A stretch of DNA of 64,000 nucleotides from positions 2,527-66,526 of IMG/VR virus record IMGVR_UViG_3300026557_000003, one strand, 5' to 3'. The position numbers and the translations under genes were made by a program. The stretch comes from a virus. Below are positions 2,802 through 63,346 of this stretch, in pieces. Position 1 is the first letter of the stretch; every line of letters begins with the position of its first letter. The notes beneath the pieces are model-generated. The model did not search any database. It was not told the DNA's origin and saw nothing but the letters and a program-made list of their open reading frames with translations.

Positions 2802-3470
2802 CTACCAACGACTGTAGGGACATTTTCGCGAAGGCAGCCTGGGTATCCTCGCCGCAATTTCTGGATTCCACCCGGTTCGTATTCTATTTCGAAACATTTC
2901 GAAATCTTCCTCTCTAACGTTAAAACGCTTGGCCCATTCCCGCACTCTCAGTGATTCCCCCGCGAATGTAAACGTTTTGGGCGGATTTGTTTTACGCTTG
3001 GTGTTGGTACCACTTAAAATTTCATCAAGACTCTTTCCTCGCTGAATATTCGTCGCGACAACGCTCCTCTTGAGTCCATGTCGATCACACCATTCAGCTA
3101 AACACATCTTTTCGCCATTGCATTCTACGATTCGATTACTCCGTTTATTCCGTGCGTTCTGGGTTCTTGTGGCCCATCGTAAATTCATCGGCCAACCATT
3201 TTCAAGGCACTCTGAACACTGGCCGCAACTATAGTGCCCGTCATTGTCTTTTCTGTCGATCTGCATTGAAGGGTCTGGTCGAGGACCTACCGTAGAGTAA
3301 AAAGCGCCAGCGGAAGAGAGCAAGTAACCACATATCTTGATTCCCCGACCGCCGTAATCTTTCCATTGTGGTTGGCGCGGATTCAAGCACCGCGTCTTGA
3401 TGCGGTCCCAGGTTTTAAACTCGGGCGTACCACTCAATCCGTGAATCGTGTTAAAATGAAATTCAGCCAT
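2802..3470 (-). CDS. HNH-type homing endonuclease (HNH-1)
   Basis: WDRIKTRCLNP...YGGRGIKIC...IDRKDNDGHY...NLRWATRTQNARNK; AAAGGAG RBS before ATG 3470. Confidence 0.85.
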   Translation of the reverse strand: MAEFHFNTIHGLSGTPEFKTWDRIKTRCLNPRQPQWKDYGGRGIKICGYLLSSAGAFYSTVGPRPDPSMQIDRKDNDGHYSCGQCSECLENGWPMNLRWATRTQNARNKRSNRIVECNGEKMCLAEWCDRHGLKRSVVATNIQRGKSLDEILSGTNTKRKTNPPKTFTFAGESLRVREWAKRFNVREEDFEMFRNRIRTGWNPEIAARIPRLPSRKCPYSRW

Positions 3471-3475
3471 TGAGT

Positions 3476-3555
3476 AAATCTCCTTTACAGATTTATTGAA
3501 TTGGTAGATCGGCGGAAGGTGCTCAAACACCGCCGCCGATTGTCATATTGTATCA
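3476..3555 (-). promoter_or_regulatory. HNH-1 leader: extended -10, hairpin, CTACCA, RBS-occluding hairpin
   Basis: TGaTACAAT; ATCGGCGG/CCGCCGAT stem with TGTTTGAGCA loop; AAATCT-gtaaagg-AGATTT. Confidence 0.7.
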
Positions 3556-4660: not shown

Positions 4661-5308
4661 ATGGCAAATCCATTCACGGTCCATCTAAACGGAAGCGGAA
4701 AAGTCGCAACCGGCGCTACGGTCGCTCAAAAGGCGTTCATCGGTGAAGATTGCGTTGTACTTGACGCCTGTGAGGTCTACGGCGAGTCCGTAATCCGCAA
4801 GGGTAGTCAACTATCCGGTGCGTGCAGGGTCTTTGGCGGCGCAGATATTCAGAAATCGCGGCTACACGGCTCAGTGATTGTGGCCGGCGAGAAGGCTGCA
4901 GTTATAAATTCCCTCTTAATTGGCGATATCCTAGTCGCTGACAGTGCCTCGGTTCATAGCTGCGATTTGCGCTGTGGACCTGGGCAAATAATCAGAATCA
5001 CTGAAAACGCGCAACTGATGGGAGTTTTGATCTATGGACCGCTGACCGTCAAGGGTGATGCAAAGGTCAGCAATTGCGAGCTGTATCCGTCGACCGATAT
5101 CGTTGAAGGCGAATGGACGAGGCCGCCAAGGGTTGTGCGATCGGTATTCCAATTTAACCTAGTCGAATCAATCAACGATAGGATTGTCATCGGCTGTCAG
5201 GTTCACTCTCTTGATGTTTGGAAGAAACTCGATCCGAACCGATGGGCGCAATTAGGATTCTCACCTGAAGAACTAGCCGAATATTCAAGACTCATCAGCG
5301 AGTGGTAG
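4661..5308 (+). CDS. Left-handed beta-helix (hexapeptide-repeat) protein
   Basis: Repeating [IV]xGxxxV hexads; C-terminal IVIGCQVH motif. Confidence 0.7.
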   Translation: MANPFTVHLNGSGKVATGATVAQKAFIGEDCVVLDACEVYGESVIRKGSQLSGACRVFGGADIQKSRLHGSVIVAGEKAAVINSLLIGDILVADSASVHSCDLRCGPGQIIRITENAQLMGVLIYGPLTVKGDAKVSNCELYPSTDIVEGEWTRPPRVVRSVFQFNLVESINDRIVIGCQVHSLDVWKKLDPNRWAQLGFSPEELAEYSRLISEW

Positions 5309-21958: not shown

Positions 21959-22539
21959 TGACGACGACCTTAACAACTGAATCAATCTGCTTAATCGCGC
22001 TTTCGCGAATCAGCCCTAGCGGTCAAAAGGGTGATCCGCTACACGCGTTATTGCGTGGAAACCTACCTGCGGCTCTGAATACACTTGCCACGCGGGTTTC
22101 GATGGATGGCCGTCGTCGTCTGCTTTCGCGTGAGTTTGACTTTACGATTGATGGCCCGACCCAGAGCGTTGACCTGTCGCCTGCAACATCAGCGAACGAA
22201 CCGTTGTTGTTGCCATACGATCCGAGCAACGGAAACTATCTACCGTTTACGGCCTGTCGAATAGCCGGAATCGACGCCTATATGATTGCTGATCGACAAG
22301 GACTCGCAATCAAAGAACTGGACGATGGCTATCTCTATTACGCGATTGAGTCACAGAAACTTTATCTTAATTCGCAGACGCCTTTGACCGGTCAAGTGGT
22401 AGTCACCGGTAGTTTTATTCCGGCAATCGACCTGACAACCGAGACGATGCCGACGCTACCGCCAGAATTCGAGGATGACATTGTTGCATTACTAGTTGAA
22501 ACGTTTATGAGTGCCCAACAAGGGCAACAGGCGGCATAA
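21958..22539 (+). CDS. Adaptor-like virion protein
   Basis: PTLPPEFEDDIVALLVE motif similar to 18426-19115. Confidence 0.5.
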   Translation: MTTTLTTESICLIALSRISPSGQKGDPLHALLRGNLPAALNTLATRVSMDGRRRLLSREFDFTIDGPTQSVDLSPATSANEPLLLPYDPSNGNYLPFTACRIAGIDAYMIADRQGLAIKELDDGYLYYAIESQKLYLNSQTPLTGQVVVTGSFIPAIDLTTETMPTLPPEFEDDIVALLVETFMSAQQGQQAA

Positions 22540-22568
22540 GATCATAAGGACGTGATTGGAGGACATGG

Positions 22569-23144
22569 ATGTCCGAAGATTCGCAATTCGATATTCCGGA
22601 ATACATCAAGAAACGCTTTGAAGGCGACGAACTGAAGGCCGTGCAAGAGGAACAGGCGCGGTTGCGGTCGAGATATGGCTACGACGCCAATAGAATCCGG
22701 ACAATGAGCCGGGTTCAACGAGATTTTGAACACAATGAGCGGGAGGTCTTGCTTGCGTCGGAGATGCTTGGCGTTCTATTAAAGGAATCGCCTTTGCCAG
22801 AAGCTGAGATTACTTTTCAGCGACGCCGATTGTCGGAGGCGCTCTGGCGAACGGGAAAACTCGAAGAAGCTCTGATCGCCGCTGCGGACAAAGCGCAATT
22901 CGACAAGGTTCTAGCAATTAAGGCGGCGGTTGAATCGGACGATCTCGAAGTCTGCAACTGTGAGGACGCTAAACACAAGGGTCTAAATATCACACGATAC
23001 GCGACAAAGACCCATATCTTTTCACCGAAACACGGCAAGATAATGCCGATGAAGCAGTGCTCGATATGCGGCCATTTGAATTGCTGTGGGAATATTCCGG
23101 CTAGGCCAAAAGACTCAATCCTTCGCCAAGGAGTCGTTAGATAA
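22569..23144 (+). CDS. Hypothetical helical protein with C-terminal Cys cluster
   Basis: GGAGG RBS; CNC...CSICGHLNC. Confidence 0.65.
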
Positions 23145-23670
23145 CATGAGCCCAAGCCAATCTTCTTATAACTCTACTGATCACGCTGGCGTCCATTCCG
23201 ACTATGCCCGCGATGTCCACACATTTCATTCCGGTTGCCGCCATAGCTCTAACTTCTCGGACTTTTTCCGGACACAGTTTCGCCTGTGGAAGTGCGGTAC
23301 CCATGCCGCGTTTATGTCCCGGGAGGTCAAATGCCCCGCGTTTTTTCTTGGCGCAATCGACAGAATTATCTCTGGGCGTACCAAGAAAGAGATGCGCCGG
23401 GTTCACGCATCTAGGCACATCGCATCGGTGAAGAACGCAAAGAGAAGGCCAGCACTGATGTTCCAGAAAATACGAGAGACGACTTGCGATAACGCCTCGC
23501 CTACCAATCATCATGCCTCCGTATTCCATTCGACCAGAAATGCGTTTGGCACCGGTCCATCGCCAACAGTCGCCTTGCGGGCCATAGCCGGGTGTTTTGT
23601 CAACCTTTGCCCAAAATCTATCAATATGCTTTTCGGTTACGATGGGTTGTTGTATGTTAACAGCGGTCAT
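23137..23670 (-). CDS. HNH homing endonuclease (HNH-2)
   Basis: RFWAKVDK...CWRWTG...[28 protein letters not shown]-terminal HTH. Confidence 0.92.
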
Positions 23671-23793
23671 AGTGCGAATCTCCTTATTAGATTCCTGCCT
23701 TGGCTAGGACTGTTGAGGTATTTCCGTATCTCGGCAGTCCGTTTCTATTATAGACATTATCGTATTACCGTCAATCATTTAAGTGAGGTGTAA
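23146..23793 (+). CDS. Antisense bridging ORF spanning the HNH-2 cassette (candidate)
   Basis: AAGGAG RBS; ATG 2 nt after the upstream stop; its TAA abuts the TTG of the next gene. Confidence 0.4.
23671..23774 (-). promoter_or_regulatory. HNH-2 promoter and leader
   Basis: TTGACG-16-TATAAT; GGACTG/CAGTCC stem; CTAGCCA; GAATCT-aataagg-AGATTC. Confidence 0.7.
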
Positions 23794-25836
23794 TTGGGCG
23801 CACCGTGGAGCATTCCAATCAATTTCGAAGGCGGCTTTATCGGGCAGGAGATAACACCTGACGCCGTCAGTTCGAATCATCTGATCTCGCCTAGTCAGAA
23901 CCTTCTCTATAGCGTCCTCGGTCAACTGGAAAGCTTTCAGGGCTGCATCGCTGGTCTTACGAATGTCGGTGGTCCCCAGATTCAGACCGTCGGCGATACC
24001 TGGGTAACTCTCAATGGTGGAACGGCTGCATACTATACCGGTAAGTCAATCTGGTTCAACGGCGGCTCTGGTCCGGTAAAAACTCCCAATCCATCAAACC
24101 CGGCGGCAATCGTCACCCTTGGGACGAATAGCAGTATCCTGCAAGTTGCGGTCTTAAAGAACGGTGTCTATCAAACGGCATTACAGGCCGGATTAAGTGC
24201 TCCTGATGCGCCGGTTCTTGCTGGCCTCGCAACTCCTGGCGTCGGGTTCACCGGAAAGAATACCGGTACATTTGCGGCCGAGATAAGCAAGATCAGAATC
24301 ACTACTGGCGCTGAGAGTAATCCAAGCCCACCATCGAATGTGGTCGCTGTCACCGCGCAATCGATCAGTATCCAAATTGACGGCCCACCGGTTGACGGAA
24401 CGACCGGTTACAACGTCTATGTGACTGCCAATGGATTTGCCGAGAGTGGTCCTTTTTTGATTCTGCTGCAAATTCAGGAGGTCGATCTGACTGATAATGG
24501 AACAGGATCGATCACGATTGCGACAAAAAACTACACGGCATTAACCGGTCACGTTTACACCGCAAATGATGTTGGCAAACAGATTATTATCGGTGGGACG
24601 TTCACAACCGTAATCGATACCGTTACCGATGCGACCCATATTATTGTTCACGACAATGCACCTGGAACGGTCGTAGGCGCGGCGACGGTCATCAATGCTT
24701 TTCTGAATGGTGTCCCACGTGCTATCGAGATTGAATGGTCGGATGGTGAATTGATCCTGAGCCAGACTCCACCGATAGACCACGATCCGCCGCCGTCTGG
24801 CACTTCCTGCGCGGCCATCGGTAACGTGATGAATGTCGGTGGTTGCTACTCTGGTGTCGGTTGGGCCTGCTCGGATGCCGGGCAACCTGAAGCCTTTAAC
24901 CCCGACAACGTTTCGTTTCTATCAGAGCCTTTACAGTTTCCGTTAGGACGCCCACAAGACGGATTTATATATCTCGTCTGTGCGAATTCGATAAGTGCTG
25001 CTGTCTATACTGGTGCTGTCAATGGTCCGCCTGTGATGGTGAGGCAGATTTGGGACCGGGTAGGTTGTGCCGGGTTTGCATCGGCCGCAATATTTGCGAA
25101 GACCCTTTATCTGTTTACGAATGGCAAGAAGATCGCGCGAATCGATCCAAATGGAAATCTTGATTACGAATTCTCAAAACCGATCAATGCCGAGATCGCA
25201 AGTTGGGATGCATCGAAAGTTGTCGTCGGCTATAGCGATGAGCGACAGGCAATGTGTTTTATTCATAATCAGGAAATACTCTGTTTCCATATGAACCTAC
25301 CAAACGGTCGCGGCGGGATGGGCAGATGGTCAACACCATTAAATCTTGCGGCTGTCACCGGTTCGGGGAACCCGACTGGTAATATCACAGGTGCGTACAC
25401 GAACGCCGGAAAACTCTATTTGCTGGCTTTTGAATCCGCCAATTACAATATTTATAAGTTCGATGAATCGGGGGCAGGTGTCAGTACCTGGTTCTTTACA
25501 ACCGGTTGGCAAACAGCCTCAGGCGGTCTTGCGCCCGCTGAAGGTTTTCGCGGAACTAGAATCAGTCAGGACCTAAAGACGACAAAGAAGATTCTCTTGG
25601 ATTACTCGAGCTCGACTGATATTGCGCTGGCTGGTGGTATCTATAATTTCAATCTCGGGACGGGCGCGTTTGTGCGCCCGATTTCAACGACCCTGCCGCA
25701 CGCCAAGAGAATATCAAAATGGATGCGGGCAAACATTAAAGCCGGTCGGATATTCGCGGTCAATTTTGGAGGTACTGGCGCGGGTCAAAAGTTTTATGCA
25801 CTCGAAGTGGAAGGGGTAAGCAGTCGGATTCACTGA
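23794..25836 (+). CDS. Tail nozzle/DNA-stabilisation-like protein (P22 gp10-like beta-propeller)
   Basis: 680 aa beta-rich with internal Ig/fibre-like insert; synteny. Confidence 0.6.
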   Translation: MGAPWSIPINFEGGFIGQEITPDAVSSNHLISPSQNLLYSVLGQLESFQGCIAGLTNVGGPQIQTVGDTWVTLNGGTAAYYTGKSIWFNGGSGPVKTPNPSNPAAIVTLGTNSSILQVAVLKNGVYQTALQAGLSAPDAPVLAGLATPGVGFTGKNTGTFAAEISKIRITTGAESNPSPPSNVVAVTAQSISIQIDGPPVDGTTGYNVYVTANGFAESGPFLILLQIQEVDLTDNGTGSITIATKNYTALTGHVYTANDVGKQIIIGGTFTTVIDTVTDATHIIVHDNAPGTVVGAATVINAFLNGVPRAIEIEWSDGELILSQTPPIDHDPPPSGTSCAAIGNVMNVGGCYSGVGWACSDAGQPEAFNPDNVSFLSEPLQFPLGRPQDGFIYLVCANSISAAVYTGAVNGPPVMVRQIWDRVGCAGFASAAIFAKTLYLFTNGKKIARIDPNGNLDYEFSKPINAEIASWDASKVVVGYSDERQAMCFIHNQEILCFHMNLPNGRGGMGRWSTPLNLAAVTGSGNPTGNITGAYTNAGKLYLLAFESANYNIYKFDESGAGVSTWFFTTGWQTASGGLAPAEGFRGTRISQDLKTTKKILLDYSSSTDIALAGGIYNFNLGTGAFVRPISTTLPHAKRISKWMRANIKAGRIFAVNFGGTGAGQKFYALEVEGVSSRIH

Positions 25837-27347
25837 TGTCCAGTTTTGCAATACCATTAGGTGATAACTTCGCACAGACGCTACAGGAAAGGGCGCTGCT
25901 CGACCACCTGACGACCGCACTTGCCTCGGGCAATATTCAGGCGTTTGCTCAGGCTGTAGCTGCGGCGCTGACCTCTGGTGTAATCGTCAACCTGCTACGT
26001 AATAGCGATCTGAATACCTCGGACGCCGGTCGTCGTGGATTTACTTATTCAATCGGTGGTGGTGCGGTAAACGATGCTGCGAACGTCTGCGCATTTTGGT
26101 ATGCGCCTGGAAGCGCGGCGGCCGGTCCTTTTGTTGACAGCGTGACGGCAACAGAGAGTCCTGATGCCATCGCGGCCGTCAAGTACGTTTCTGACGGCGC
26201 AATCAGTACTGGAAGCCCTCACGCGCTTTCGATGGTGACCGCAACTTTTCTCGCCTCGGATGTCGGTAGGGCTGTCTGGATTGATGGCGCATTGGGGGGC
26301 GCGCCACTTATAACAACCATTTCAGCCTTTACCGATAGCACGCATGTAACTGTTACAGCGGCGGCGACCTCGACTGTTTCAGGAAAACTTGTGCGCATCT
26401 ACAACGCAGGGGCCAGCACCGTCTGGAATTTACCAAAAGGCTACGTCGAATGGGGTGGCGCTTTTACACTAATGAGTCCGCTGGAAAAGAACTTCGTCAG
26501 GCCCGGCGTGGCAAACAGTATTTTTATCATTGGTAGCGTCAGGCTCAATCCGGACACAGGCGCGTTACCGCTCACCGACGGCTACCGAGTTCGAGTTTCC
26601 TGCTGGGATAACACCGCAGGACAGGTGAAGATAATCGAAGGCGCGCCAATTCCGATTTCAGCGGCTCTTATTCGTGGTGCTGGCGCGGTCACACGAAAGT
26701 ATATTGTTAAATACTTTACGGCCGCCGGGGATTTCTGGTTTTCGGATGCGGTGTCACCTGTGGCTGTTACGTCGACTCCTGACCCTACGGCGGTCGATCC
26801 GGGACAAGTGGAAGTTACATTTCCGACCTATCCAGGGGTACGGACATATGAGGTTTATCGGTCTGATTCAGTTGCCGGTTTCAGTAACTTCTACCGGATC
26901 GCCACTGAGTCGACCGGGATAAGCAGCGCTCAGGATGTTGGTGGCAGATTTGAAGGACCGTATACTATCGCGGCAAAGAACTGGCGAGCGCAGGCGTTTG
27001 CGGCCGGGGTCATCGGCTCTGGCTGGTCACCGATAAGCTTCCATATCTTAACACCGGCGACATACAACCTGGGCATAACGGCAGCAAATTCACAATGGCT
27101 ACGATTCGATATTGTGGATGCGAGCGGTGCTGTTGTTTCGATACCACCGTGGACGCTTAATTTCGACTTCGCCGGGTTTAGTTATGCGTCAGGAAAATGG
27201 CAGATGTCGGCCTCGGATCAACAGGCGGCCGGGGACTTCGAATCGAAAAGTCCCTCGCCTTCCGGGGGTATTCCGTCTGGCGGCGGTGGCGATCCGGGCG
27301 GTGGTGGATCGATCGGGCGTGGCGGCAATCAAGACCTTGGGTTCTAA
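25836..27347 (+). CDS. Virion tail protein
   Basis: TGATG coupling; beta-rich; contains a segment resembling the insert in the previous gene. Confidence 0.6.
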   Translation: MSSFAIPLGDNFAQTLQERALLDHLTTALASGNIQAFAQAVAAALTSGVIVNLLRNSDLNTSDAGRRGFTYSIGGGAVNDAANVCAFWYAPGSAAAGPFVDSVTATESPDAIAAVKYVSDGAISTGSPHALSMVTATFLASDVGRAVWIDGALGGAPLITTISAFTDSTHVTVTAAATSTVSGKLVRIYNAGASTVWNLPKGYVEWGGAFTLMSPLEKNFVRPGVANSIFIIGSVRLNPDTGALPLTDGYRVRVSCWDNTAGQVKIIEGAPIPISAALIRGAGAVTRKYIVKYFTAAGDFWFSDAVSPVAVTSTPDPTAVDPGQVEVTFPTYPGVRTYEVYRSDSVAGFSNFYRIATESTGISSAQDVGGRFEGPYTIAAKNWRAQAFAAGVIGSGWSPISFHILTPATYNLGITAANSQWLRFDIVDASGAVVSIPPWTLNFDFAGFSYASGKWQMSASDQQAAGDFESKSPSPSGGIPSGGGGDPGGGGSIGRGGNQDLGF

Positions 27348-27351
27348 AGGA

Positions 27352-27861
27352 TTAAATATGCGTCCAGTTTTCTCCGCGAAGAATATGTGCAATCTCACTT
27401 CTACTCAAATTGAATTTGATCGCAAGCTGGCGTCTCGACAGCAGGCCTCCAAGGCTACGTATTTCGCGCACCGCCTCTTCTGTTGTCTTTGCCATTCCAT
27501 GATTAGAACCTCTACGAAGTCTATTTCTAACTCTCGCGTCTTCTGCGTTCTCAGCCGCCGTTCCTTCGCGAAGATGATCTGGATTAACGCAATTTTTAAT
27601 ATCACAGCCATGGAGCACGTACAATTCAGGCCATTTATTGTAAGCAATGCGATAAGAAGCTACGTGCGCTCCTACCTGGACTTTTCGAAATTGAATCTTG
27701 CCGGGTTGAATCCCGGCCTTCATTTTTGGACGGCGATTGCCAGTTTTCCATTTCCAGCAAGTGCCCCACGGGCCGTATCCGGTGGACTTATCAACCTTTG
27801 TCCAGAAATAGTTAATATCCTTGTCGGTGAGTTGAAGGCGGTTTATATTATCAGTAGCCAT
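27352..27861 (-). CDS. HNH homing endonuclease (HNH-3)
   Basis: FWTKVDK...CWKW...VLHGCDIKNCVNPDHLREGTAAENAED. Confidence 0.92.
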   Translation of the reverse strand: MATDNINRLQLTDKDINYFWTKVDKSTGYGPWGTCWKWKTGNRRPKMKAGIQPGKIQFRKVQVGAHVASYRIAYNKWPELYVLHGCDIKNCVNPDHLREGTAAENAEDARVRNRLRRGSNHGMAKTTEEAVREIRSLGGLLSRRQLAIKFNLSRSEIAHILRGENWTHI

Positions 27862-27939
27862 TTCTTGAAATCTACCTTTCAATTTTGGTTAGAGGCTTCG
27901 GGTTGCAGAAACAACTCGGGGCCTCATCGTGCATTATAG
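27358..27939 (+). CDS. Antisense bridging ORF spanning the HNH-3 cassette (candidate)
   Basis: AAGGA RBS; ATG 11 nt after the upstream stop; TAG 18 nt before the next start. Confidence 0.4.
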   Translation: MRPVFSAKNMCNLTSTQIEFDRKLASRQQASKATYFAHRLFCCLCHSMIRTSTKSISNSRVFCVLSRRSFAKMIWINAIFNITAMEHVQFRPFIVSNAIRSYVRSYLDFSKLNLAGLNPGLHFWTAIASFPFPASAPRAVSGGLINLCPEIVNILVGELKAVYIISSHFLKSTFQFWLEASGCRNNSGPHRAL

Positions 27940-27941
27940 CA
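27865..27941 (-). promoter_or_regulatory. HNH-3 promoter and leader
   Basis: TGcTATAAT; GAGGC/GCCTC stem with TGTTTCTGCA loop; CTAACCA; TTGAAA-ggtaga-TTTCAA. Confidence 0.7.
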
Positions 27942-27956
27942 CGGAAGGAGTGTATT

Positions 27957-28550
27957 TTGGGCTCGGGCAATGATCAAGCAAAACAATTAGCGAACAAAGC
28001 CGATACTTCATCGGTAACGACGCTTGACAACTCGACCTTTAATCCGCTTGCCAAAGCTGGAATTGACAGGGCTGGCACTGATCTTCAGAATATTCAGGCC
28101 GGTAAGTTCGGGAGCCTGCCACTTGTTCAGGCGGTCAATCAGGCGGCGAACAGGTTGAAATCGTGGAATCCGGCCCCAATGGGTGATGCTGCGCTGGCCG
28201 CCGGTGCGAGCGGGCAAGGTGGGTATGCGACCGCAGAGGACTCCTATCGTCGGAGATTACAGGACCGGGCCGTTAGCGACCTGATGCCACAGGCGGTGGA
28301 GGCTGAGCGGAATTATTCGAGTTCCATATTATACCCTGGGGCGCAGGGTGAATCGGCTTATGATTTAGCCAAGGCTGCTGGCTACGCGGGCGCGGGAGGC
28401 CAAGCTGCAAATTTGTACAATCTGGAATCGAATAACGGGTTCTGGAATCATCTGACGAACTCACTTGGCCAGAGTCTCGGCCAAAGTCTTGGCGGCGTCA
28501 GTGGTAGCTACAATAGCGGAAACGGCCAGTTCACGGGTGGCTTTGGTTAA
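27957..28550 (+). CDS. Ejection/pilot-like protein (P22 gp7-like)
   Basis: GGAAGGAG RBS with TTG; Gly/Ala/Asn-rich, GQSLGQSLGG C-terminus. Confidence 0.6.
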   Translation: MGSGNDQAKQLANKADTSSVTTLDNSTFNPLAKAGIDRAGTDLQNIQAGKFGSLPLVQAVNQAANRLKSWNPAPMGDAALAAGASGQGGYATAEDSYRRRLQDRAVSDLMPQAVEAERNYSSSILYPGAQGESAYDLAKAAGYAGAGGQAANLYNLESNNGFWNHLTNSLGQSLGQSLGGVSGSYNSGNGQFTGGFG

Positions 28551-29254
28551 AGAATATGCTTCCACGTTTCACGTCTAACAACATTTCGGATGGTGGCGGG
28601 GCTTACACCGTATCGCTTCCCCTGTGCGTAAAGAGAGCATATCGCTGCGTTCTGGCGTATCTCTCTAACATCCTTTTCAGTCAGACGCGCAAAGCAATGC
28701 AATTCGCCCCTCGCTGGCCTTTGCTGGCTTGCTGCATTGGTGGCGTCTTCGACATGTTTCCAGGTCTGACATTTAATGATCCTCTTTGCAGTACAGGCTG
28801 CAACGCTGAACCTACGACCTATTTCTTCGTAACTCAATCGCGGAAAAAGCGAACGAAGTTCTGTTATTTCGACCTCTGTAAGTGTTGTGTTGTAATTATC
28901 TTCTCCCCGTATCCCGCGGCCCTTCGCTGCCATATCAGCACTATTCTCAGCGTTCGTGCCCTTGAAAAGGTGTGCGGGATTAACGCAGGAACGGTTATCG
29001 CAGTGATGGCAAACGAGCAATTTTGGCCATTCGTGAAAATGAACCATAAAGGAGAATCGGTGGGCTCCTACTATTCTCCTTGGAATGCCTCGTTGTATGA
29101 TCGCCAGACTTCCGTATCCTTGATTGCCAATAGTGCCAGTCCACGACCAGCAATCTCCGTCAGGACCAAAACCCGGCGTTTTGTCAACTCTTTCCCAGAA
29201 CATTTTAAGATGCTTGTCGGTAAACACCGGTGGGTTTATATTAGTCGAAGCCAT
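28547..29254 (-). CDS. HNH homing endonuclease (HNH-4)
   Basis: FWERVDK...CWSWTG...[27 protein letters not shown]; duplicated C-terminal HTH. Confidence 0.92.
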   Translation of the reverse strand: MASTNINPPVFTDKHLKMFWERVDKTPGFGPDGDCWSWTGTIGNQGYGSLAIIQRGIPRRIVGAHRFSFMVHFHEWPKLLVCHHCDNRSCVNPAHLFKGTNAENSADMAAKGRGIRGEDNYNTTLTEVEITELRSLFPRLSYEEIGRRFSVAACTAKRIIKCQTWKHVEDATNAASQQRPARGELHCFARLTEKDVREIRQNAAICSLYAQGKRYGVSPATIRNVVRRETWKHIL

Positions 29255-29332
29255 ATTCTGAATCACCTTTCAGTTTGTTGGTTAGAGCCGCTGCGGACAT
29301 TTAGCGTGTCCGCGCGGCTTGCTGTATTTTAA
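28556..29332 (+). CDS. Antisense bridging ORF spanning the HNH-4 cassette (candidate)
   Basis: ATG 6 nt after the upstream stop; TAA 15 nt before the next start; weak RBS. Confidence 0.4.
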   Translation: MLPRFTSNNISDGGGAYTVSLPLCVKRAYRCVLAYLSNILFSQTRKAMQFAPRWPLLACCIGGVFDMFPGLTFNDPLCSTGCNAEPTTYFFVTQSRKKRTKFCYFDLCKCCVVIIFSPYPAALRCHISTILSVRALEKVCGINAGTVIAVMANEQFWPFVKMNHKGESVGSYYSPWNASLYDRQTSVSLIANSASPRPAISVRTKTRRFVNSFPEHFKMLVGKHRWVYISRSHILNHLSVCWLEPLRTFSVSARLAVF

Positions 29333-29334
29333 CA
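29258..29334 (-). promoter_or_regulatory. HNH-4 promoter and leader
   Basis: TGtTAAAAT; AGCCGC-GCGGACA stem with CGCTAAA loop; CTAACCA; CTGAA-aggtga-TTCAG. Confidence 0.7.
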
Positions 29335-29346
29335 CAGATTTGGAGT

Positions 29347-30033
29347 TTGATTTTGCTTATTACCATTCAGGGTGACACGATTCCAAATTGGCAGCCTCTA
29401 AATCCAACTGTGGAAATGCGGATATTTGCCAATGATGCGTTTGTAACCGACGAAGGTGTACTCATACAGCCTGGGCCATTGTTCTACCAAGCCGTGGAAT
29501 GCACTCCGAATCTAACGCTCAAAACATTAGCCTATCCGACCTTTACAATTGAGGCAACTACTAACGGCACACCAAACAACCAGACCTACAGTTTCCTATT
29601 TTATTCAGGCCCCGGAGTCAACGGCCGTCCAATCAACGGCGGTCAGTTCGTGGGATTCCAAAACCTGCCCGTTCCTTTCGCTCCGACGACTACGACACTC
29701 GCAGCGCTCGAAATTAGTGCCGGTCAGTTTTTCCCGCCTGGGTGGTCGATTGATGAAGCCCTAATCAGTGCGCTACAGGCCCAGCAATCATCGGTTACGT
29801 TTCCTGCGAATAATCCGACACCATCCGTATTCAATCGCGAGAACTTCATAACCGCAAATACGCAGACAACGAATTACACCAATTTTTTGAATCCGTATAA
29901 TGGCCAACGGATTGAGATTCTCGTTAATGATATTTTCACGTCCATTTTCGGGACGCAGTTTAATCAAGGGACGGTCGTCGGACTCCGTTTCGATCTTGGT
30001 CAATGGTACTTCACTGGATTTCAAACCAACTAA
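29347..30033 (+). CDS. Virion protein
   Basis: TTG start with GGAG RBS; beta-rich. Confidence 0.6.
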   Translation: MILLITIQGDTIPNWQPLNPTVEMRIFANDAFVTDEGVLIQPGPLFYQAVECTPNLTLKTLAYPTFTIEATTNGTPNNQTYSFLFYSGPGVNGRPINGGQFVGFQNLPVPFAPTTTTLAALEISAGQFFPPGWSIDEALISALQAQQSSVTFPANNPTPSVFNRENFITANTQTTNYTNFLNPYNGQRIEILVNDIFTSIFGTQFNQGTVVGLRFDLGQWYFTGFQTN

Positions 30034-30035
30034 TT

Positions 30036-31280
30036 ATGAAAAAACTATTACTTTTGCTCACGTTCTTCTTTGCGTTTACAGTCTTGGCCGAGGCCCAATT
30101 CTCAACCCCTATCCAGTCTGGCCCGACGCCGATAGGTATACACTGCACTCCGAATCCCCAGTTAACTCCTTTCTTCGTCCGTACCTCGGACTGGCAAACC
30201 TTTGTCTGTACCGCGCTCGACACCTGGACGCCGACAAGTGGCGGCGGGGGAGGTGGTGGAATATCGACGATTAACGGTAGCGGCATAGCGGCTCAGATCA
30301 TTCAAGGTACGGCGGTAGGCGGTCCGAATGTATCGTCAGTCGCAGGGGTAACCACGATTAGTAATCCATCGGCTGGAGCGGCGACGGCAGGTATCGTAAC
30401 GGCTGGAACGCAGATCATCGATGGCGCAAAGACGTTAACTGGCGCTACGACCGTTACAAATGCAACGGTTAATAGTTTGAATGTTGGCCCAACTGGGGCG
30501 ACCAATCCAGCGTTTTCGGTAGACTCCAGTCCAACGGTAGGATTTGGCCTGGGTGGCATTCAAGTCATAGGTGGCACAAACGGCTCAAACCCGACCATTC
30601 AGGTAGTTTCCCCACTGTCGCCGACCGGACTTAATATAAACACCCTTGGAGCATCTGGAATTACTTTTCAGGTTAACGGGGTAAACACTTTTACCGTTGG
30701 CCCTGCCGCAATTTCAACCCACGGCTCGATGACGATGTTCGCTCCGAATGCTTCGATTCTAATGCAGGGCTCGACCTCTGGAAGCTCAACGATCATCCCG
30801 CAGGCAATTGCCGGAAATTATACGTTTCAGCTTCCGAATGCTAATCCGGCCGTCGGTCAGAATGTATACGTGGCTGGATTTTCCGCTGGCATAGTAACGC
30901 TTGGCTATCAGAACTCCGGTGGGGTAACGGCATCACCTTATGATCTTGGCGCGGAATGGGACGCCATACCGACGGCCTCACAGGAGATGCTTCATTTTGT
31001 AGCCAACCGGTCATTTACGTTGGCTGTCACCGGCTCAACCTGCCACTCGAACTTTGCGGCAACCGCTCAGGCGGATTTTGTCGTTCAGTATTGTCCGTCA
31101 GGTGTGTCATGTATAAGCAAGGGTACTTTACGGTTTGCGGCTACCGGTGTCTTTTGCTCCGTAGTTAGTCCGGTATCGGTTACCGTGTCATCGGGTGATG
31201 TTGTAAAGATCATCGCACCGGCCAGCCCAGACGGGACTCTATCTAATGTAACTTTTACCTTGAAAGGAACAGTGCCTTAA
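30036..31280 (+). CDS. Tail fibre/spike-like protein with signal-peptide-like N-terminus
   Basis: MKKLLLLLTFFFAFTVLAEA|Q; Gly/Thr-rich shaft; C-terminal jelly-roll-like domain with paired Cys. Confidence 0.7.
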   Translation: MKKLLLLLTFFFAFTVLAEAQFSTPIQSGPTPIGIHCTPNPQLTPFFVRTSDWQTFVCTALDTWTPTSGGGGGGGISTINGSGIAAQIIQGTAVGGPNVSSVAGVTTISNPSAGAATAGIVTAGTQIIDGAKTLTGATTVTNATVNSLNVGPTGATNPAFSVDSSPTVGFGLGGIQVIGGTNGSNPTIQVVSPLSPTGLNINTLGASGITFQVNGVNTFTVGPAAISTHGSMTMFAPNASILMQGSTSGSSTIIPQAIAGNYTFQLPNANPAVGQNVYVAGFSAGIVTLGYQNSGGVTASPYDLGAEWDAIPTASQEMLHFVANRSFTLAVTGSTCHSNFAATAQADFVVQYCPSGVSCISKGTLRFAATGVFCSVVSPVSVTVSSGDVVKIIAPASPDGTLSNVTFTLKGTVP

Positions 31281-33385
31281 TGCGTTTTGCAAGTTTAATT
31301 CTCAAGCGAATCATATTTCTATCTATTCTCCTTTTCGTCGCATCTATTCTTGCGATGGCGCAGCCATATAATGGAACACTTCATGGGACGCCGGTTTTTG
31401 GCCCGGCCAAGTTTAGCAACGGTCTAACATCTGTCACCGATGCGAATTACCTATCGCTGCCATCTGGCGTATTCAATTTCAGTTCGTCCAGTAGTTGGGC
31501 GCTTGAGGCATGGTTAAAAACAACGGGTTCGTCCACTGGCGTAGCTATAGCGTCTGGCTCACTTGGCGATATTGCACCGGGCCAGCCGTCTTTTTGGTTC
31601 GGTACTTCGGGCGGTAATTTCGTTTTAAATATCACCGGAAGCGGGGCATTTACAGGGACTCTTGACAGTGGAATCGCCATCAACGATGGGGCTTTCCATC
31701 ATTGTGCAATATCGGTGAACGGGGGAACGACTATCAAATTGTACGTCGACGGGGTCCTGGGAAATACTTTCACCGGCGTAGTGACCACTATGGTTCACAC
31801 AAATGGATTGATTGGACGGTATACAGTGACTTCATTCGCCTGGAATAGCGCGATAGATGAAATCGCTGTCTGGGGTTCAAATAAATATCCCGTGGCCTTC
31901 ACTCCACCATCAAGTCCATACGTCGGAACAGAATCTAATCTGATCGCACTTTATCATCTTCAGGCAAATGGGGTTGATTCGTCTACGCCTCCTGGGATTT
32001 CCGCGTCACCAAATCAGATCGTTATCAGTACCACAGGAAATTCTGTGGTTTTGACCGGTATTACGACTACATGGACGCCTGGCACACCGGGGACACCTAC
32101 GTTTACATTGTCTGGTGGTACAGGTGCGTCCATTACAGCCCAGACAATAGCGAGCGGAACCAGTGCCACATTAACAATAACGGCCGGAAGTGCGCTCGGA
32201 GTTTTGACGATTACAGACCCAAGCACCGGATTTACCACAACCGTTACGGTTGTTTCAACTCCGTCAACCTCCACAATTCCAATGAGCGATCCCGGAATCA
32301 TATTTAGTCCGTACAACTGGAATGTCACGGGTGGAACTGCGAATACAGTCAATCCAGGTGCGTATTTTAGGACGATATTCAACGGTACGCAGGTATCGCT
32401 AAACTTCACGACCAGTGCGGATTCGTCACCTTATCCTCAATTATGGGCACGGGTCGATAACCAATATTGGCAACAGATCGTACTGACGGCCGGTAATCCA
32501 CAAGTCCTGATAACGTCAAGTCTTCAGAACCGGAAGCATCTCGTGGAAGTTGTGGTCAAATCAACTTCCTATAGTGGCGTTGACAGGTGGAGTGGACCGC
32601 AAACCATAGTTACGGTCACGGGAATCGTCGTTGATTATCTTACAACTCTCTCGCTACCGATTCGCAAAACCAAGAATATTCTGATATACGGAGATTCCAT
32701 TACCGAAGGATTGTTGAGCAAGAATAACACTGCCTCGGGTCAGCCAGATCAAAGCGATATCCTTGGTTGCTATTCCTATGCGCTATCGACTGCCGTGGAC
32801 GCTGAGGTTGGCATTGTGGCATTCGGGGGAACGGGGCTGCTTACCAGTTTTGCAGGCGTGCCAGCCCTGACATCTTCTTACAATCTAATTTACAACGGGG
32901 CATCGAGAGTTTTTACGCCCGCGCCTGATTTGGTGATTTACAATGAGGGCACAAATGACGGCTCAAGTATCGTCACTGCTTACGGCACGGTTGTTAGTGC
33001 GATTCTCGCTGCGGCTCCGAACGCGAAACAGTTACTTCTTATTCCATTCAACAATAGCCACGCCTCTGACATTGCGACCGTTGTAACCAATGCGGGAAAT
33101 CCAAAGGTCACATCACAGTCGACCGTGGGCTGGTTTAACTCGTCAGATTCAAGCGACGGTTTGCACCCCTACGATTATTCGCACGTCGGCCTAATTGCTC
33201 CGAAACTGTTTCCGGTTGTGATGGCGCTTCTTTATCCGTCGACCTGTTTAAACCGCGTGCGAACAATTAGGATTATCGCCGAATTGACGCTACCAAGAGG
33301 GCACGGCCGTGTTTTTCAGGGTAACCCACGAATCCCAGACTGCCAATGCTTTATCGTTGGCACGGTGGATCCGGTTACGTGGTAG
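31280..33385 (+). CDS. LamG/concanavalin-like plus SGNH (GDSL) hydrolase protein with signal-peptide-like N-terminus
   Basis: ALEAWLK...DGAFHHCA...LYVDG...IDEIAVW (LamG); GDSITEG, GGTG, EGTND, DGLHP (SGNH blocks). Confidence 0.85.
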   Translation: MRFASLILKRIIFLSILLFVASILAMAQPYNGTLHGTPVFGPAKFSNGLTSVTDANYLSLPSGVFNFSSSSSWALEAWLKTTGSSTGVAIASGSLGDIAPGQPSFWFGTSGGNFVLNITGSGAFTGTLDSGIAINDGAFHHCAISVNGGTTIKLYVDGVLGNTFTGVVTTMVHTNGLIGRYTVTSFAWNSAIDEIAVWGSNKYPVAFTPPSSPYVGTESNLIALYHLQANGVDSSTPPGISASPNQIVISTTGNSVVLTGITTTWTPGTPGTPTFTLSGGTGASITAQTIASGTSATLTITAGSALGVLTITDPSTGFTTTVTVVSTPSTSTIPMSDPGIIFSPYNWNVTGGTANTVNPGAYFRTIFNGTQVSLNFTTSADSSPYPQLWARVDNQYWQQIVLTAGNPQVLITSSLQNRKHLVEVVVKSTSYSGVDRWSGPQTIVTVTGIVVDYLTTLSLPIRKTKNILIYGDSITEGLLSKNNTASGQPDQSDILGCYSYALSTAVDAEVGIVAFGGTGLLTSFAGVPALTSSYNLIYNGASRVFTPAPDLVIYNEGTNDGSSIVTAYGTVVSAILAAAPNAKQLLLIPFNNSHASDIATVVTNAGNPKVTSQSTVGWFNSSDSSDGLHPYDYSHVGLIAPKLFPVVMALLYPSTCLNRVRTIRIIAELTLPRGHGRVFQGNPRIPDCQCFIVGTVDPVTW

Positions 33386-47296: not shown

Positions 47297-47977
47297 ATGA
47301 ATTTTAATCCACACGAACAAGACTCTGAAACTCAAATCGCAATGGCAGAAGCTAGAAAGACAATGCTAAAGACGAACAAAATTACTGTTTTCGATATTGA
47401 GATTATCAAAGCAATTCCTGACCGCAATCAGGAGAATGACCCGACTATTAAATATTGCGGCGGCTGGCAGGATCACGCCGGAATGGGTATCTCAGTTATC
47501 GGAGCATATTCATACGCAGATGACCGTTATCGGGTTTTCCTCAAAGACAACTTTGGGCTATTCGAGGACCTGTTGCACGAATCAGATATTGTTGTGAGCT
47601 TCAACGGTCTAGCATTCGATAACCGCGTATTGGAAGCCTGTGGCATCAACCCGCCAGACGCGACAACCTACGATCTGTTGGTCGAAACCTGGGCTGCCGC
47701 TGGACTCGCGCCGAAGTTCAATTATAAGACACACGGCGGCTTTGGTCTTGACGCCGTATGTTCTGCGAATTTCGATCTGAACAAGACTGGACACGGCGCA
47801 CTTGCCCCCGTCCAATGGCAACAAGGCAAATACGGACACGTCATTGATTACTGTCTCGAAGACGTAAGATTAACCAAAAAACTGTTCGACCTGGCCACGG
47901 CGGGGCCAATCAAGAACCCGAAATCCGCAATTGGTGGAAGTTATTTGATGTTGCGGGATCCATTTATCGTGAAATGA
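47297..47977 (+). CDS. DEDD/RNase H-like 3'-5' exonuclease
   Basis: VFDIE, SFNGLAFD, YDL, LDAV, YCLEDVRLT. Confidence 0.85.
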   Translation: MNFNPHEQDSETQIAMAEARKTMLKTNKITVFDIEIIKAIPDRNQENDPTIKYCGGWQDHAGMGISVIGAYSYADDRYRVFLKDNFGLFEDLLHESDIVVSFNGLAFDNRVLEACGINPPDATTYDLLVETWAAAGLAPKFNYKTHGGFGLDAVCSANFDLNKTGHGALAPVQWQQGKYGHVIDYCLEDVRLTKKLFDLATAGPIKNPKSAIGGSYLMLRDPFIVK

Positions 47978-47996
47978 TCGATTATATGCTTACTTA

Positions 47997-48080
47997 TGCT
48001 AGAATAAGGTCGAGTCGAAAAGACGTTACCAGCGCCCTTTCGACTCTCACCTATACCACTCGTAACATAAGGAGCACGAG
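47997..48080 (+). promoter_or_regulatory. HNH-5 promoter and leader
   Basis: TGcTAGAAT; GAGTCGAAA/TTTCGACTC stem with CGTTACCAGCG loop; CTCACC; CTCGT-aacataaggagc-ACGAG. Confidence 0.7.
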
Positions 48081-48084
48081 CAAT

Positions 48085-48657
48085 ATGGCTGTCGATAAAT
48101 ATACCATACTCGCCAATCTACCATCTTCCGTGGTTGATCGTTTCTGGAAAAAGGTCGATAAACAGAATGGACCGATCCTTATGCACTGTTCTCGTCTCGG
48201 CCGTTGCTGGCAGTGGTTCGGAGACAGGAATCAGGGCGGCTACGGTAGTATGAGGCTTGGTTCTTCTTCTTGGGCGGCACGTGCCCGTGCGCATATTATT
48301 TCATGTGCCATCGACAGAAACGGAATACCAGAAGGCTCTCTGGTCCTGCATAAATGTGATAACCCCTCATGCGTAAGGCCTAGTCATTTATGGCCCGGCT
48401 CGCAACGCGAAAACGTGGCAGACATGATGGCAAAGAAGCGGGACCGCCGCCCTGGTTCCAGATCAGGCGTTGCTGTGAATTATTCTCGCGGCGAGGATCG
48501 TCACAATGCTCATTGCACGGAAGCGATCGTGCTGGCCATGCGAGCGGATTATATTCCCGGCGTTTTTGGCTGCAACAAGATAGCAAAAAAATATAACGTA
48601 GTATGCCGAGATGTCGTTGCTCGTATTATCAGGAGAGAAATATGGAAGCATATTTAG
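48085..48657 (+). CDS. HNH homing endonuclease (HNH-5)
   Basis: RFWKKVDK...CWQW...VLHKCDNPSCVRPSHLWPGSQRENVAD; TAAGGAG RBS. Confidence 0.92.
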   Translation: MAVDKYTILANLPSSVVDRFWKKVDKQNGPILMHCSRLGRCWQWFGDRNQGGYGSMRLGSSSWAARARAHIISCAIDRNGIPEGSLVLHKCDNPSCVRPSHLWPGSQRENVADMMAKKRDRRPGSRSGVAVNYSRGEDRHNAHCTEAIVLAMRADYIPGVFGCNKIAKKYNVVCRDVVARIIRREIWKHI

Positions 48658-51217: not shown

Positions 51218-51307
51218 TCCCGCGTGTAGATCAACTGAGCACGGCAACCCCGCGCGGGCCGCGATCTGCTTCTGAGGGAGATAACTAATTGATTTTATGG
51301 ACATTTA

Positions 51308-51393
51308 TGTTAACATGGATGCGAATCAGGGAGATGTTTTGAGCGTCTCCCTGGCTCTAATCAAATCGACGAACCTGTAAGGAGATTCGCATC
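51308..51393 (+). promoter_or_regulatory. HNH-6 promoter and leader
   Basis: TGtTAACAT; CAGGGAGA/TCTCCCTG stem with TGTTTTGAGCG loop; CTCTAATCA; GATGCGAATC/GATTCGCATC pairing over the RBS region. Confidence 0.7.
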
Positions 51394-51394
51394 A

Positions 51395-52036
51395 ATGACT
51401 GAGAACAAATCTAACATAATTCCTGAGGAACAAGAAGAGTGGCGATGGGTCAAGGGTTTTGAAGGTAGATATGAAGTTTCGAATATGGGGCACGTCAGAT
51501 CATACGTGAAACATGGATACGGGATTGATCTTTCTCCTGTGCCGATGCGTATTCTTTGTGGTGGCCTCACTAGTGGGTATATTCAGGTTGATTTGTCAAA
51601 GGGTGATCGAGTACGTCACCCTTTTCGCATACATGTTCTAGTTGCTGCTGCTTTTCTAGGGGATTGTCCCGATAGGCATCAGGTCAATCATAAAAATTGG
51701 AATAAGACGGACAATCGCCTCGATAATCTTGAGTATCTTACATCCCAGGGCAACACCTTGCATAGTAGGCCGCGAAGAAGAGGCCAGTGTGGAACACGGA
51801 TCGGAAGCGCAAAACTAAAAGAGAGCGATATTCCGGTCATTAAGTCGCTACGTGCTCAAGGTTTTACGTATAAAATGATCGGTGATCGGTTCTTGGTATC
51901 AGAATCAGCAATTGGCCATATTGTTTTAGGCCGCCACTGGAAGCACGTACGAGAAGATGGCAAAATAGTTCTTCCCACTGGGCGTACCGTCCGGGGAGAA
52001 AGTCGCGCGAAGAAACCGGAAGCGAGGGTAGCTTGA
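51395..52036 (+). CDS. NUMOD4-HNH homing endonuclease (HNH-6)
   Basis: EEWRWVKGFEGRYEVSNMGHVRS (NUMOD4); HVLVAAAF...VNHKNWNKTDNRLDNLEY. Confidence 0.92.
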   Translation: MTENKSNIIPEEQEEWRWVKGFEGRYEVSNMGHVRSYVKHGYGIDLSPVPMRILCGGLTSGYIQVDLSKGDRVRHPFRIHVLVAAAFLGDCPDRHQVNHKNWNKTDNRLDNLEYLTSQGNTLHSRPRRRGQCGTRIGSAKLKESDIPVIKSLRAQGFTYKMIGDRFLVSESAIGHIVLGRHWKHVREDGKIVLPTGRTVRGESRAKKPEARVA

Positions 52037-62334: not shown

Positions 62335-62718
62335 GTGGCTCAAGATGAATTTCGACTGCTGCTGCACGAGATTAATAAAAAGCAGGACAGGATACTCGTA
62401 CAGCAAAGGGAGTTAAATAAGATTGTGGCAACAGCAAGCACCCAGGCTGTAGGAACTGGCGAAGCTATTCACGTGCTCGCTGGCAAATTCGAGGAAACAA
62501 TACAGCGCATGGATGGCGTCGTCGATCTTGCTGAAGATGATAGCCGAAAAACCGGGGCTAGTCAGATTCGGGTCACGGGTAAGCAGGAGCAGTTACTTGA
62601 TATTCAAATCCAAAACGCAAAACTAACCCGTATTCAAATTATCTTTGTCCTGGTCGGCCTGCTTGTAACTGGAACATTCGGCGTTCTTGGCTTCTTGAAA
62701 TGGTATGTTCACACCTAG
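62335..62718 (+). CDS. Coiled coil plus C-terminal TM protein (holin-like)
   Basis: IIFVLVGLLVTGTFGVLGFL near the C-terminus. Confidence 0.6.
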   Translation: MAQDEFRLLLHEINKKQDRILVQQRELNKIVATASTQAVGTGEAIHVLAGKFEETIQRMDGVVDLAEDDSRKTGASQIRVTGKQEQLLDIQIQNAKLTRIQIIFVLVGLLVTGTFGVLGFLKWYVHT

Positions 62719-63346
62719 CGACAAACCGCTGATCTTCGTAATCGACAACGCCCCTGATATTGCGGGCTTTTTGCCGCTGGCGTTTCAGGACCACGGCTAT
62801 GAATCGCGCTCAGTTCTCACCCCCGACGACTTCCGCGCTGAATTTCTCAAGCTCTACGTCGATCCCAAATACCGTTCGCCGATTTTCCTGATAGACATTG
62901 CGATTTCTAAACACGAGGACGGATGGGACCTGGTTGACTTCATTCGCAAATATGACCGTGACTGCCTGATCTTTATGTTCACTGGACGTGTGAATAAGAT
63001 CGTTGATCGCGTCCTACTTAAAAAACACGGCGCCAATGCCATGATCTACAAGCCGAAAGACGGCACAGAGATACTGGCACAAATTAAGCTTTACGAGAAA
63101 GAGCGAGAACAAAACGGTCGAGCGGATGGACAGGCTGGGCGGTGGATGTTTACCGATGGACAGATGGCGGCTGTGGCATTTAATATCTTATTCGTGTTGG
63201 CGCTATGCTGGTTTGTGGGACATATTGACGCGAAGGTCGATACCCTAACAAAAGAGTTCTCGACCGAGAGCGCATTTAGGATTGTCGATGACGGTAAGAT
63301 TATGAGACTTCAGGGCCAGTTAGACGGGATAACGAAAGGAAAATGA
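62705..63346 (+). CDS. Response-regulator receiver domain fused to a TM segment and short coiled coil
   Basis: IFVIDN, FLIDI (phospho-acceptor Asp), MFTG, IYKP; TM AVAFNILFVLALCWFV. Confidence 0.8.
   Translation: MFTPSDKPLIFVIDNAPDIAGFLPLAFQDHGYESRSVLTPDDFRAEFLKLYVDPKYRSPIFLIDIAISKHEDGWDLVDFIRKYDRDCLIFMFTGRVNKIVDRVLLKKHGANAMIYKPKDGTEILAQIKLYEKEREQNGRADGQAGRWMFTDGQMAAVAFNILFVLALCWFVGHIDAKVDTLTKEFSTESAFRIVDDGKIMRLQGQLDGITKGK

Follow-up and report, generated by a model that had tools for sequence, protein, structure and literature searches.

Open reading frames on the operon strand cross antisense HNH endonuclease genes in a phage late operon, and probably keep its mRNA translated

How can endonuclease genes persist when they stand backwards within a tightly packed phage operon? 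The question is raised by a 64 kb stretch of DNA, here called the window, which covers positions 2,527 to 66,526 of the 69,197-bp viral record IMGVR_UViG_3300026557_000003 of IMG/VR, derived from a soil metagenome, whose run is the only one listed with this DNA, and estimated to be 99% complete. The genome has a GC (guanine plus cytosine) content of 50%, and its virion operon, at ~4661–41130 on the plus strand, is a chain of open reading frames (ORFs) almost without breaks, in which the median gap is ~0 nucleotides (nt) and many junctions are of the ATGA or TAATG type. Three HNH genes, HNH-A, HNH-B and HNH-C, are inserted antisense into this chain (Table 1), and each of them is crossed on the operon strand by an ORF, which we call a bridge, in the mirror frame of the HNH gene. 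With the bridges included, the operon contains no gap of more than 222 nt; with the bridges excluded, it contains three, each of ~600–800 nt. As set out below, the mirror frames are open far beyond expectation and in a manner that depends on orientation. The probable reason is that selection keeps the late mRNA continuously translated across the inserts, which would counteract polarity and preserve coupling.

The initial annotation had described the bridges as plus-strand ORFs of 215, 193 and 258 amino acids (aa) that start soon after the stop of the upstream structural gene, run through the whole HNH gene and its leader, and stop near the next structural start, and the coordinates and junctions proved to be as described. 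The bridge ATGs lie 1, 10 and 5 nt beyond the upstream stops at sites A, B and C respectively, with Shine–Dalgarno-like sequences at two of them (AAGGAG 11 nt ahead of ATG 23146, and AAGGA 6 nt ahead of ATG 27358). The bridge stops are followed after 0, 17 and 14–20 nt by the next start, a TTG in each case, which at site C is at either 29347 or 29353. At site B, the bridge stop sits within the complement of the HNH-B −10 box, and an AAGGA(G) motif precedes the start of the bridge as well as that of the downstream gene. All three bridges have the spacing of coupled cistrons, with a start just past the upstream stop and a stop at the next ribosome-binding site (RBS) or start, and the same spacing is found in the relatives L006, L007 and L013, and in L031, L039, L154 and L155.

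A stop on the operon strand in the mirror frame corresponds, in exact codon register, to a TTA, CTA or TCA codon in the HNH frame. These mirror-stop codons had been reported as absent from the three inserted genes, and we find none among the 581 codons of HNH-A, HNH-B and HNH-C (177, 169 and 235 respectively), while the two other plus-strand frames over these genes contain 5–14 stops each. In the 37 long plus-strand genes of the phage the same codons make up 3.03% of the total (451/14893), and not one of the 37 genes is free of them. Conditioned on the Leu and Ser content of each HNH, the absence of such codons from the three genes together has a probability of 5e-8 under the codon usage of sense-oriented HNHs and of ~3e-7 under that of the phage. 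The remaining HNH genes of the window, HNH-5, HNH-6 and HNH-1, do contain mirror-stop codons, in agreement with the first description, and their counts are given in Table 1. Openness also extends beyond the genes: the untranslated HNH leaders, of 25–40 codons in the window, are open in the bridge frame in all six cases of the phage's clade (25–51 codons; joint shuffle P = 2e-5). Chance is excluded as the source of the open mirror frames in the window.

If mirror openness were equally common in HNH genes whatever their context, a refutation that the initial annotation had itself proposed, the bridges would require no special explanation. We therefore surveyed 138 IMG/VR loci with homologous HNHs, classified by the orientation of the long ORFs on both flanks; any ORF overlapping the HNH was excluded as a flank, and expected openness was calculated from flank codon usage. 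When both flanks were antisense to the HNH, 12 of 26 mirror frames were fully open against 1.9 expected (Poisson-binomial P = 2e-10), whereas none of 25 was fully open when both flanks were sense (2.0 expected). The broader classes behaved similarly, with 16/47 antisense cases open (4.5 expected) and 1/69 sense cases (7.2 expected; Fisher p = 1e-6). The excess persisted when the phage's own clade was left out, both in the strict class (6/19, P = 2.5e-3) and in the broader one (9/24, P = 1e-4; Fisher p = 4e-4 against the sense cases).

The fit from upstream stop to downstream start also recurs outside the clade, for example in L031, L026, L014, L018, L041/42, L050/51, L077, L100 and L117. The translation of bridge C, used as a phmmer query, matched 25 cluster representatives of 122–311 aa among 1.84 billion. 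In the three of these that were inspected (L154, L155 and L156), the match lies over a full HNH (E 1e-57 to 1e-66), within a co-oriented operon and coupled at both ends; the L154 bridge has TAATG overlaps at both of its ends, that of L155 sits between a head–tail adaptor gene and a tail-completion gene, and one inspected bridge sits between HK97-gp10-like and gp17-like genes. In cultured phages, a tblastn search with the bridge protein gave no bridged example, and the HNHs of Nepra, GP4, BUCT566 and phi674 are sense-oriented. Orientation itself differs between sources: among 81 HNHs on bacterial genome contigs (L160–L239), two are antisense to both neighbours and 31 sense, compared with 47 antisense and 69 sense in viral contigs. 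Of the 31 bacterial sense HNHs, one is open against 4.4 expected; the antisense cases there number only two. As a separate observation, L018 3491–4495 contains two tandem HNH domains in one open frame, with the opposite strand open over 322 codons, and is a double cassette under a single bridge ORF.

Relatives of the phage, found through a protein database and contig look-ups with the 680-aa structural protein downstream of insert A, are metagenomic and share 41–68% identity with that protein. Their operons reveal the empty sites, at which the same structural genes are separated by 0–8 nt. Only the window has an HNH at site A. Site B contains one in the window, L007 and L013 and none in L006, L008 and L009, and site C is occupied in the window and L006 and vacant in L007 and L008. 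The inserts are sporadic at precise sites among related genomes, which is the distribution of free-standing homing endonucleases.

Four further antisense HNHs are present in these relatives (two in L006, one each in L007 and L013), and each of them is crossed by a bridge that extends from the stop of the upstream gene to the next start. The first of the L006 genes contains two mirror stops only, at 5099–5101 and 5147–5149, both within the upstream gene, which is still being translated there (its end is at 5160), and its bridge begins with GTG 5162, just past both of them. In L007 and L013, the gene caller picked the bridge rather than the HNH. The seven HNHs of the clade are 31–56% identical, with a third-position identity of 0.35–0.43. 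Third positions are near saturation, so the choice of Leu and Ser codons is effectively independent in each lineage, and openness has therefore been maintained lineage by lineage rather than inherited as sequence. For the six clade genes that are fully open, the joint probability is ~1e-13.

The junctions suggest how the bridges are anchored. The usual bridge start is the reverse complement of a conserved His codon in the C-terminal W-x-H-[IV] motif of the HNH, with CAT giving ATG and CAC giving GTG on the bridge strand, followed by the mirrored Trp codon (CCA); the ATG of bridge A is of this kind. Because the start complements a codon so close to the C-terminus, it lies 2–3 codons from the HNH's own stop, which in turn abuts or overlaps the stop of the upstream gene. 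The use of CAT or CAC for this His does not differ between bridged and sense-oriented genes. At the other end, ancestral stops are found. Insert A falls within the 3′ end of the upstream gene, so that the window protein ends in ..GVVR*, where the L006 and L007 orthologues of this 191-aa protein have ~9–10 extra C-terminal residues (..RPSLNHLKRQ*). The ancestral ..LNHLKRQ* and TAAGTG (L007) have their homologues in the tail of bridge A, ..VNHLSEV* followed by TAATTG. Likewise, the bridge at site C of L006 stops at the TAG of TAGGAG...TTG, an ancestral stop that the empty L007 allele displays. Ancestral stop–start junctions are thus reused by the bridges at sites A (window) and C (L006), which fits preserved coupling, since ribosomes would be delivered where the ancestral upstream gene had delivered them.

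Which of the two strands encodes a protein under selection can be judged from aligned codons. Amino acid identity is 39–56% in the HNH frame and 22–32% in the mirror frame, and nucleotide identity by HNH codon position follows the order 2>1>3. The greater conservation of the HNH frame and this order of positions argue that the HNH is the selected protein, with the bridge constrained only to stay open. Amino acid constraint on both strands, as in a functional antisense overlapping pair, was not found, and bridges A, B and C have no Pfam or PHROG matches. Other arrangements were considered and rejected. A +1 frameshift or readthrough joining the upstream gene to the bridge does not account for an offset that varies by site (0, +1 and +2), and no slippery motif is present. 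A group I or II intron has no Rfam match in 22000–30500, and an intein or intron is at odds with upstream genes that end in their own stops and with a bridge frame offset that differs between sites.

We interpret the locus as follows. Three free-standing HNH cassettes would have inserted backwards between genes of the late operon, or in the last codons of one of them, each bringing a sigma-70-type promoter, a leader hairpin and an RBS of its own into an operon that is tightly packed and, presumably, translationally coupled. Selection on the synonymous Leu and Ser codons of the HNH gene, and on the sequence of its leader, would keep the mirror frame free of stops. A ribosome finishing the upstream structural gene would then re-initiate 1–10 nt further on, read 193–258 codons without conserved meaning across the whole insert, and terminate at or beside the RBS and start of the next gene, at site A on the ancestral stop codon. 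The late mRNA would thus lack an untranslated pyrimidine-rich stretch of 0.6–0.8 kb, so that polarity, whether through early termination by Rho, through decay of mRNA bare of ribosomes or through both, would be avoided and stop–start coupling to the downstream gene kept. Translation is the parsimonious target of selection because the absence of stops from one particular frame matters only to a reader of that frame; and as openness extends over the whole 0.6–0.8 kb, where coupling alone would need no more than a short ORF close to the next start, ribosome cover would be of benefit besides coupling. The plus-strand RNA has a C/G ratio of 1.13–1.18 over the inserts and 0.76–0.92 in the flanking genes, a C-richness in the direction that Rho would prefer. 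That selection keeps antisense inserts open on the operon strand had been proposed at the outset, and this proposal is supported by the orientation dependence, the lack of conservation of the mirror protein and the reused junctions.

Several observations weigh against this reading. Translation of the bridges is predicted from sequence, and the part played by Rho is conjectural. The excess of C over G across the inserts is modest, and only some of the bridge starts have a clear Shine–Dalgarno sequence ahead of them. Outside the clade the bridging rule is not universal: about half of the antisense HNHs there are unbridged, among them all those at AT-rich loci (GC 0.37–0.44) and several at GC 0.5–0.64 (the unbridged cases include L015, L054, L133, L074 and L146), as is gene 34 of the cultured Gordonia phage Belphegor, an antisense HNH between minor-tail genes. 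The HNH tree resolves poorly, with 2/63 branches supported, and provides one usable independent pair. Finally, two antisense genes that are not HNHs are unbridged in the distant relatives L008 and L009, with eight and two mirror stops respectively. These genes (L008 19941–20447 and L009 20173–20733) are signal-peptide/dockerin-like and follow a lipase/Laminin_G tail gene; they are possibly unbridged because of their placement at the operon end.

One alternative, which we think unlikely, is that bridge translation has been selected for another benefit, either to block pairing with the convergent HNH mRNA, and with it cleavage by RNase III, or to melt the leader hairpins, whose plus-strand forms look like terminators or could hide the next RBS. 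Every HNH does have its own promoter facing the operon, and leader hairpin A, in its plus-strand form, is followed by a T-rich tail and scored as terminator-like. However, terminator-like hits numbered 8 compared with 8.5 in shuffles, and the melting of a hairpin would need a short ORF only, not at least 200 open codons. It is distinctly less likely that openness brings no present benefit and reflects either a filter that acts when a cassette inserts or a lineage trait within one cassette subfamily. On the HNH tree, the open antisense cases show mild clustering, with 11 changes where shuffling gives a mean of 14.4, and the mirror start comes free of cost from the conserved His codon; nevertheless, the site-B orthologues in the window, L007 and L013 are open despite their near-saturated third positions, the leaders are open although they are free to drift, and sense-oriented members of the family are closed.

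We give slightly less credence again to the idea that the bridges encode functional proteins, as antisense overlapping genes for accessory virion or immunity proteins, for example. The ORFs are long, have starts and in some cases an RBS, and have been called by gene callers (in L007, L013 and the 25 database clusters), but conservation follows the HNH frame alone, the profile searches gave no family, and the ends of the ORFs are fixed by the neighbouring genes and not by the cassette. Chance, or a general codon bias that makes shadow ORFs common opposite genes, has a negligible claim: the mirror frame is the antisense frame most often open, and at loci with a GC of at least 0.60 the probability of openness is 0.2–0.6 per gene, but this genome is at 50% GC, the window by itself gives a probability of ~1e-7 and the survey one of 2e-10, and 0/25 sense-oriented homologues are open.

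Continuous translation across an antisense insert can be compared with what is known of other mobile endonuclease genes. In a review of the T4 seg and mob genes, the free-standing endonuclease genes described are mostly co-oriented and coupling serves the endonuclease's own expression, while of the antisense segD no more is said than that its transcription is probably poor (PMC2988022). The present inserts resemble these HNH or GIY-YIG genes in occurring sporadically between conserved phage genes, with regulatory signals of their own and tight junctions, but a host-strand ORF across the insert has no counterpart in that review. Our full-text searches of the literature found no account of host-strand ORFs across antisense free-standing endonuclease genes.

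As with inteins and group I introns that carry homing endonucleases, a selfish element would make its own insertion harmless to the host gene; unlike them, it does not rely on protein or RNA splicing, the HNH insert is never removed, and no intron model matches. In the Synechocystis DnaX intein, the endonuclease gene is on the opposite strand, and there too an antisense HNH-type gene lies beneath a host-strand frame that must stay open. The host-strand product of that intein is a functional intein domain, whereas the bridge product is unconserved and lies between genes. Shadow ORFs, a by-product of codon usage, share with the bridges the same register (frame −1) and the same gene-caller mis-calls; in contrast to them, the bridges are open far above the expectation at 50% GC, depend on orientation, continue through non-coding leaders and are bounded by the stop and start of the neighbours. 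Engineered non-polar cassettes and the palindromic elements of Rickettsia are likewise inserts arranged so that translation continues or restarts. The former are man-made and the latter short, non-coding repeats, whereas here a full gene on the opposite strand would have been recoded.

Whether translational bridging is a general third way of neutralizing the cost of endonuclease insertion, beside intron and intein splicing, we regard as evenly balanced. If it is, both strands of the cassette could be read, with its mirror start supplied by the conserved C-terminal His codon, and it would land so that the bridge ends on the ancestral stop–start junction. Bridging would then be expected where the host couples transcription and translation, in Rho-sensitive late operons, and would be dispensable elsewhere; a host without coupling would account for the AT-rich and actinophage cases that are unbridged. 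From sequence alone, bridged antisense genes could then report on the polarity pressure in uncultured phage–host pairs, and could be a testable indicator of the dependence of late transcription on coupled translation. The bridges would also show clearly that selection can act on translation as such and not on its product, with an ORF kept open purely to carry ribosomes, and would represent a new way for selfish endonuclease genes to survive in essential operons. They would account for spurious 'hypothetical proteins', at least 25 database clusters matching one bridge alone, and would offer phage engineers a rule for the design of non-polar insertions.

Table 1. Features of the inserts and their surroundings. 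Positions are those of the window unless a relative is named.
Feature	Position	Strand	Remarks
Upstream virion-module gene, 191 aa	22569..23144	+	3′ end truncated by insert A
HNH-A, HNH_3 homing endonuclease, 177 aa	23137..23670	−	antisense to operon; 0 mirror-stop codons
HNH-A leader	23671..23793	−	sigma-70-like promoter, hairpin, CTAGCCAA box, AAGGAG RBS
Bridge ORF A, 215 codons	23146..23793	+	mirror frame of HNH-A and leader; ends ..VNHLSEV*
Structural gene, 680 aa	23794..25836	+	TTG start directly abuts bridge A stop (TAATTG)
Tail-module gene, 503 aa	25836..27347	+	upstream neighbour of insert B
HNH-B, HNH_3 endonuclease, 169 aa from ATG 27861	27352..27861	−	antisense; 0 mirror-stop codons
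Bridge ORF B, 193 codons	27358..27939	+	mirror frame of HNH-B and leader
Structural gene, 197 aa	27957..28550	+	between inserts B and C; GGAAGGAG RBS
HNH-C, HNH_3 endonuclease, 235 aa	28547..29254	−	antisense; 0 mirror-stop codons
Bridge ORF C, 258 codons	28556..29332	+	mirror frame of HNH-C and leader
Next structural gene after insert C, 228 aa	29347..30033	+	likely start TTG 29353, following GGAG
HNH-1, PHROG HNH E 7e-42	2802..3530	−	among co-oriented minus-strand genes; 7 mirror-stop codons
HNH-5, same family as inserts	47974..48657	+	sense, internal control; 5 mirror-stop codons
HNH-6, NUMOD4-HNH_3 gene	51395..52036	+	sense; 9 mirror-stop codons
Further antisense HNH in L006	5072-5746		
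Further antisense HNH in L006	14337-14840		
Further antisense HNH in L007	5880-6383		
Further antisense HNH in L013	contig end		

The inserted genes themselves appear, from their sequence, to be ordinary free-standing HNH_3 / His-Me finger homing endonucleases, with cleavage and homing predicted. HNH-A, HNH-B and HNH-C match Pfam HNH_3 (E 5e-5 to 3e-6) and PHROG HNH/endonuclease families (E 1e-18 to 1e-31), and the catalytic His-Me finger core is intact, with H81, C83, D84, C88, H93 and N102 invariant (alignment A1). In HNH-C, the C-terminal helix-turn-helix/W-K-H module is duplicated, and the stop of this gene overlaps that of the upstream gene as a TTAA palindrome. Comparison of the leaders at 23671–23793, 27862–27956, 29255–29346, 47985–48093 and 51300–51403 in the window, together with those of L006 and L007, shows that HNH cassettes in either orientation, HNH-5 and HNH-6 included, have one leader plan on their own strand. 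It consists of an extended −10 (TGnTAnAAT) or a −35/−10 pair, a hairpin of ~40 nt, a CTCTAACCAA-like box and an AAGGAG or AAAGGTG RBS, followed by the ATG. The HNH-A promoter, TTGACG-16-TATAAT at 23774–23747, matches the sigma-70-like consensus in 11 of 12 positions. The complement of the CTCTAACCAA-like box contains TAG, and the bridge frame avoids that TAG in every case.

The phage has no near relative among cultured phages, as judged by megablast and tblastn with the 8.5 kb region and the 680-aa protein, and a scan of IMG/VR with this protein gave no matches; distant relatives of the phage carry SU10-type portal and adaptor domains. No RNA polymerase match was obtained among the ten large ORFs scanned, and the late operon is apparently transcribed by the host RNA polymerase. 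Downstream of insert C, comparison of window 29347–33385 with L006 14937–18962 shows that a tail protein of 1321–1341 aa in the relatives matches the window in its first 226 residues only; the match is to the 228-aa ORF, and the remainder has been swapped for other genes (425 and 701 aa). This looks like a modular exchange behind a conserved N-terminal anchor. Beyond the operon, window 56447–58183 is a C-5 DNA methylase gene (Pfam E 3e-10), in which a 540-codon ORF without a Pfam match (56535–58157) is nested on the same strand in the +1 frame, and window 62705–63346 encodes a protein with a response-regulator receiver domain (Pfam Response_reg, E 4e-7).

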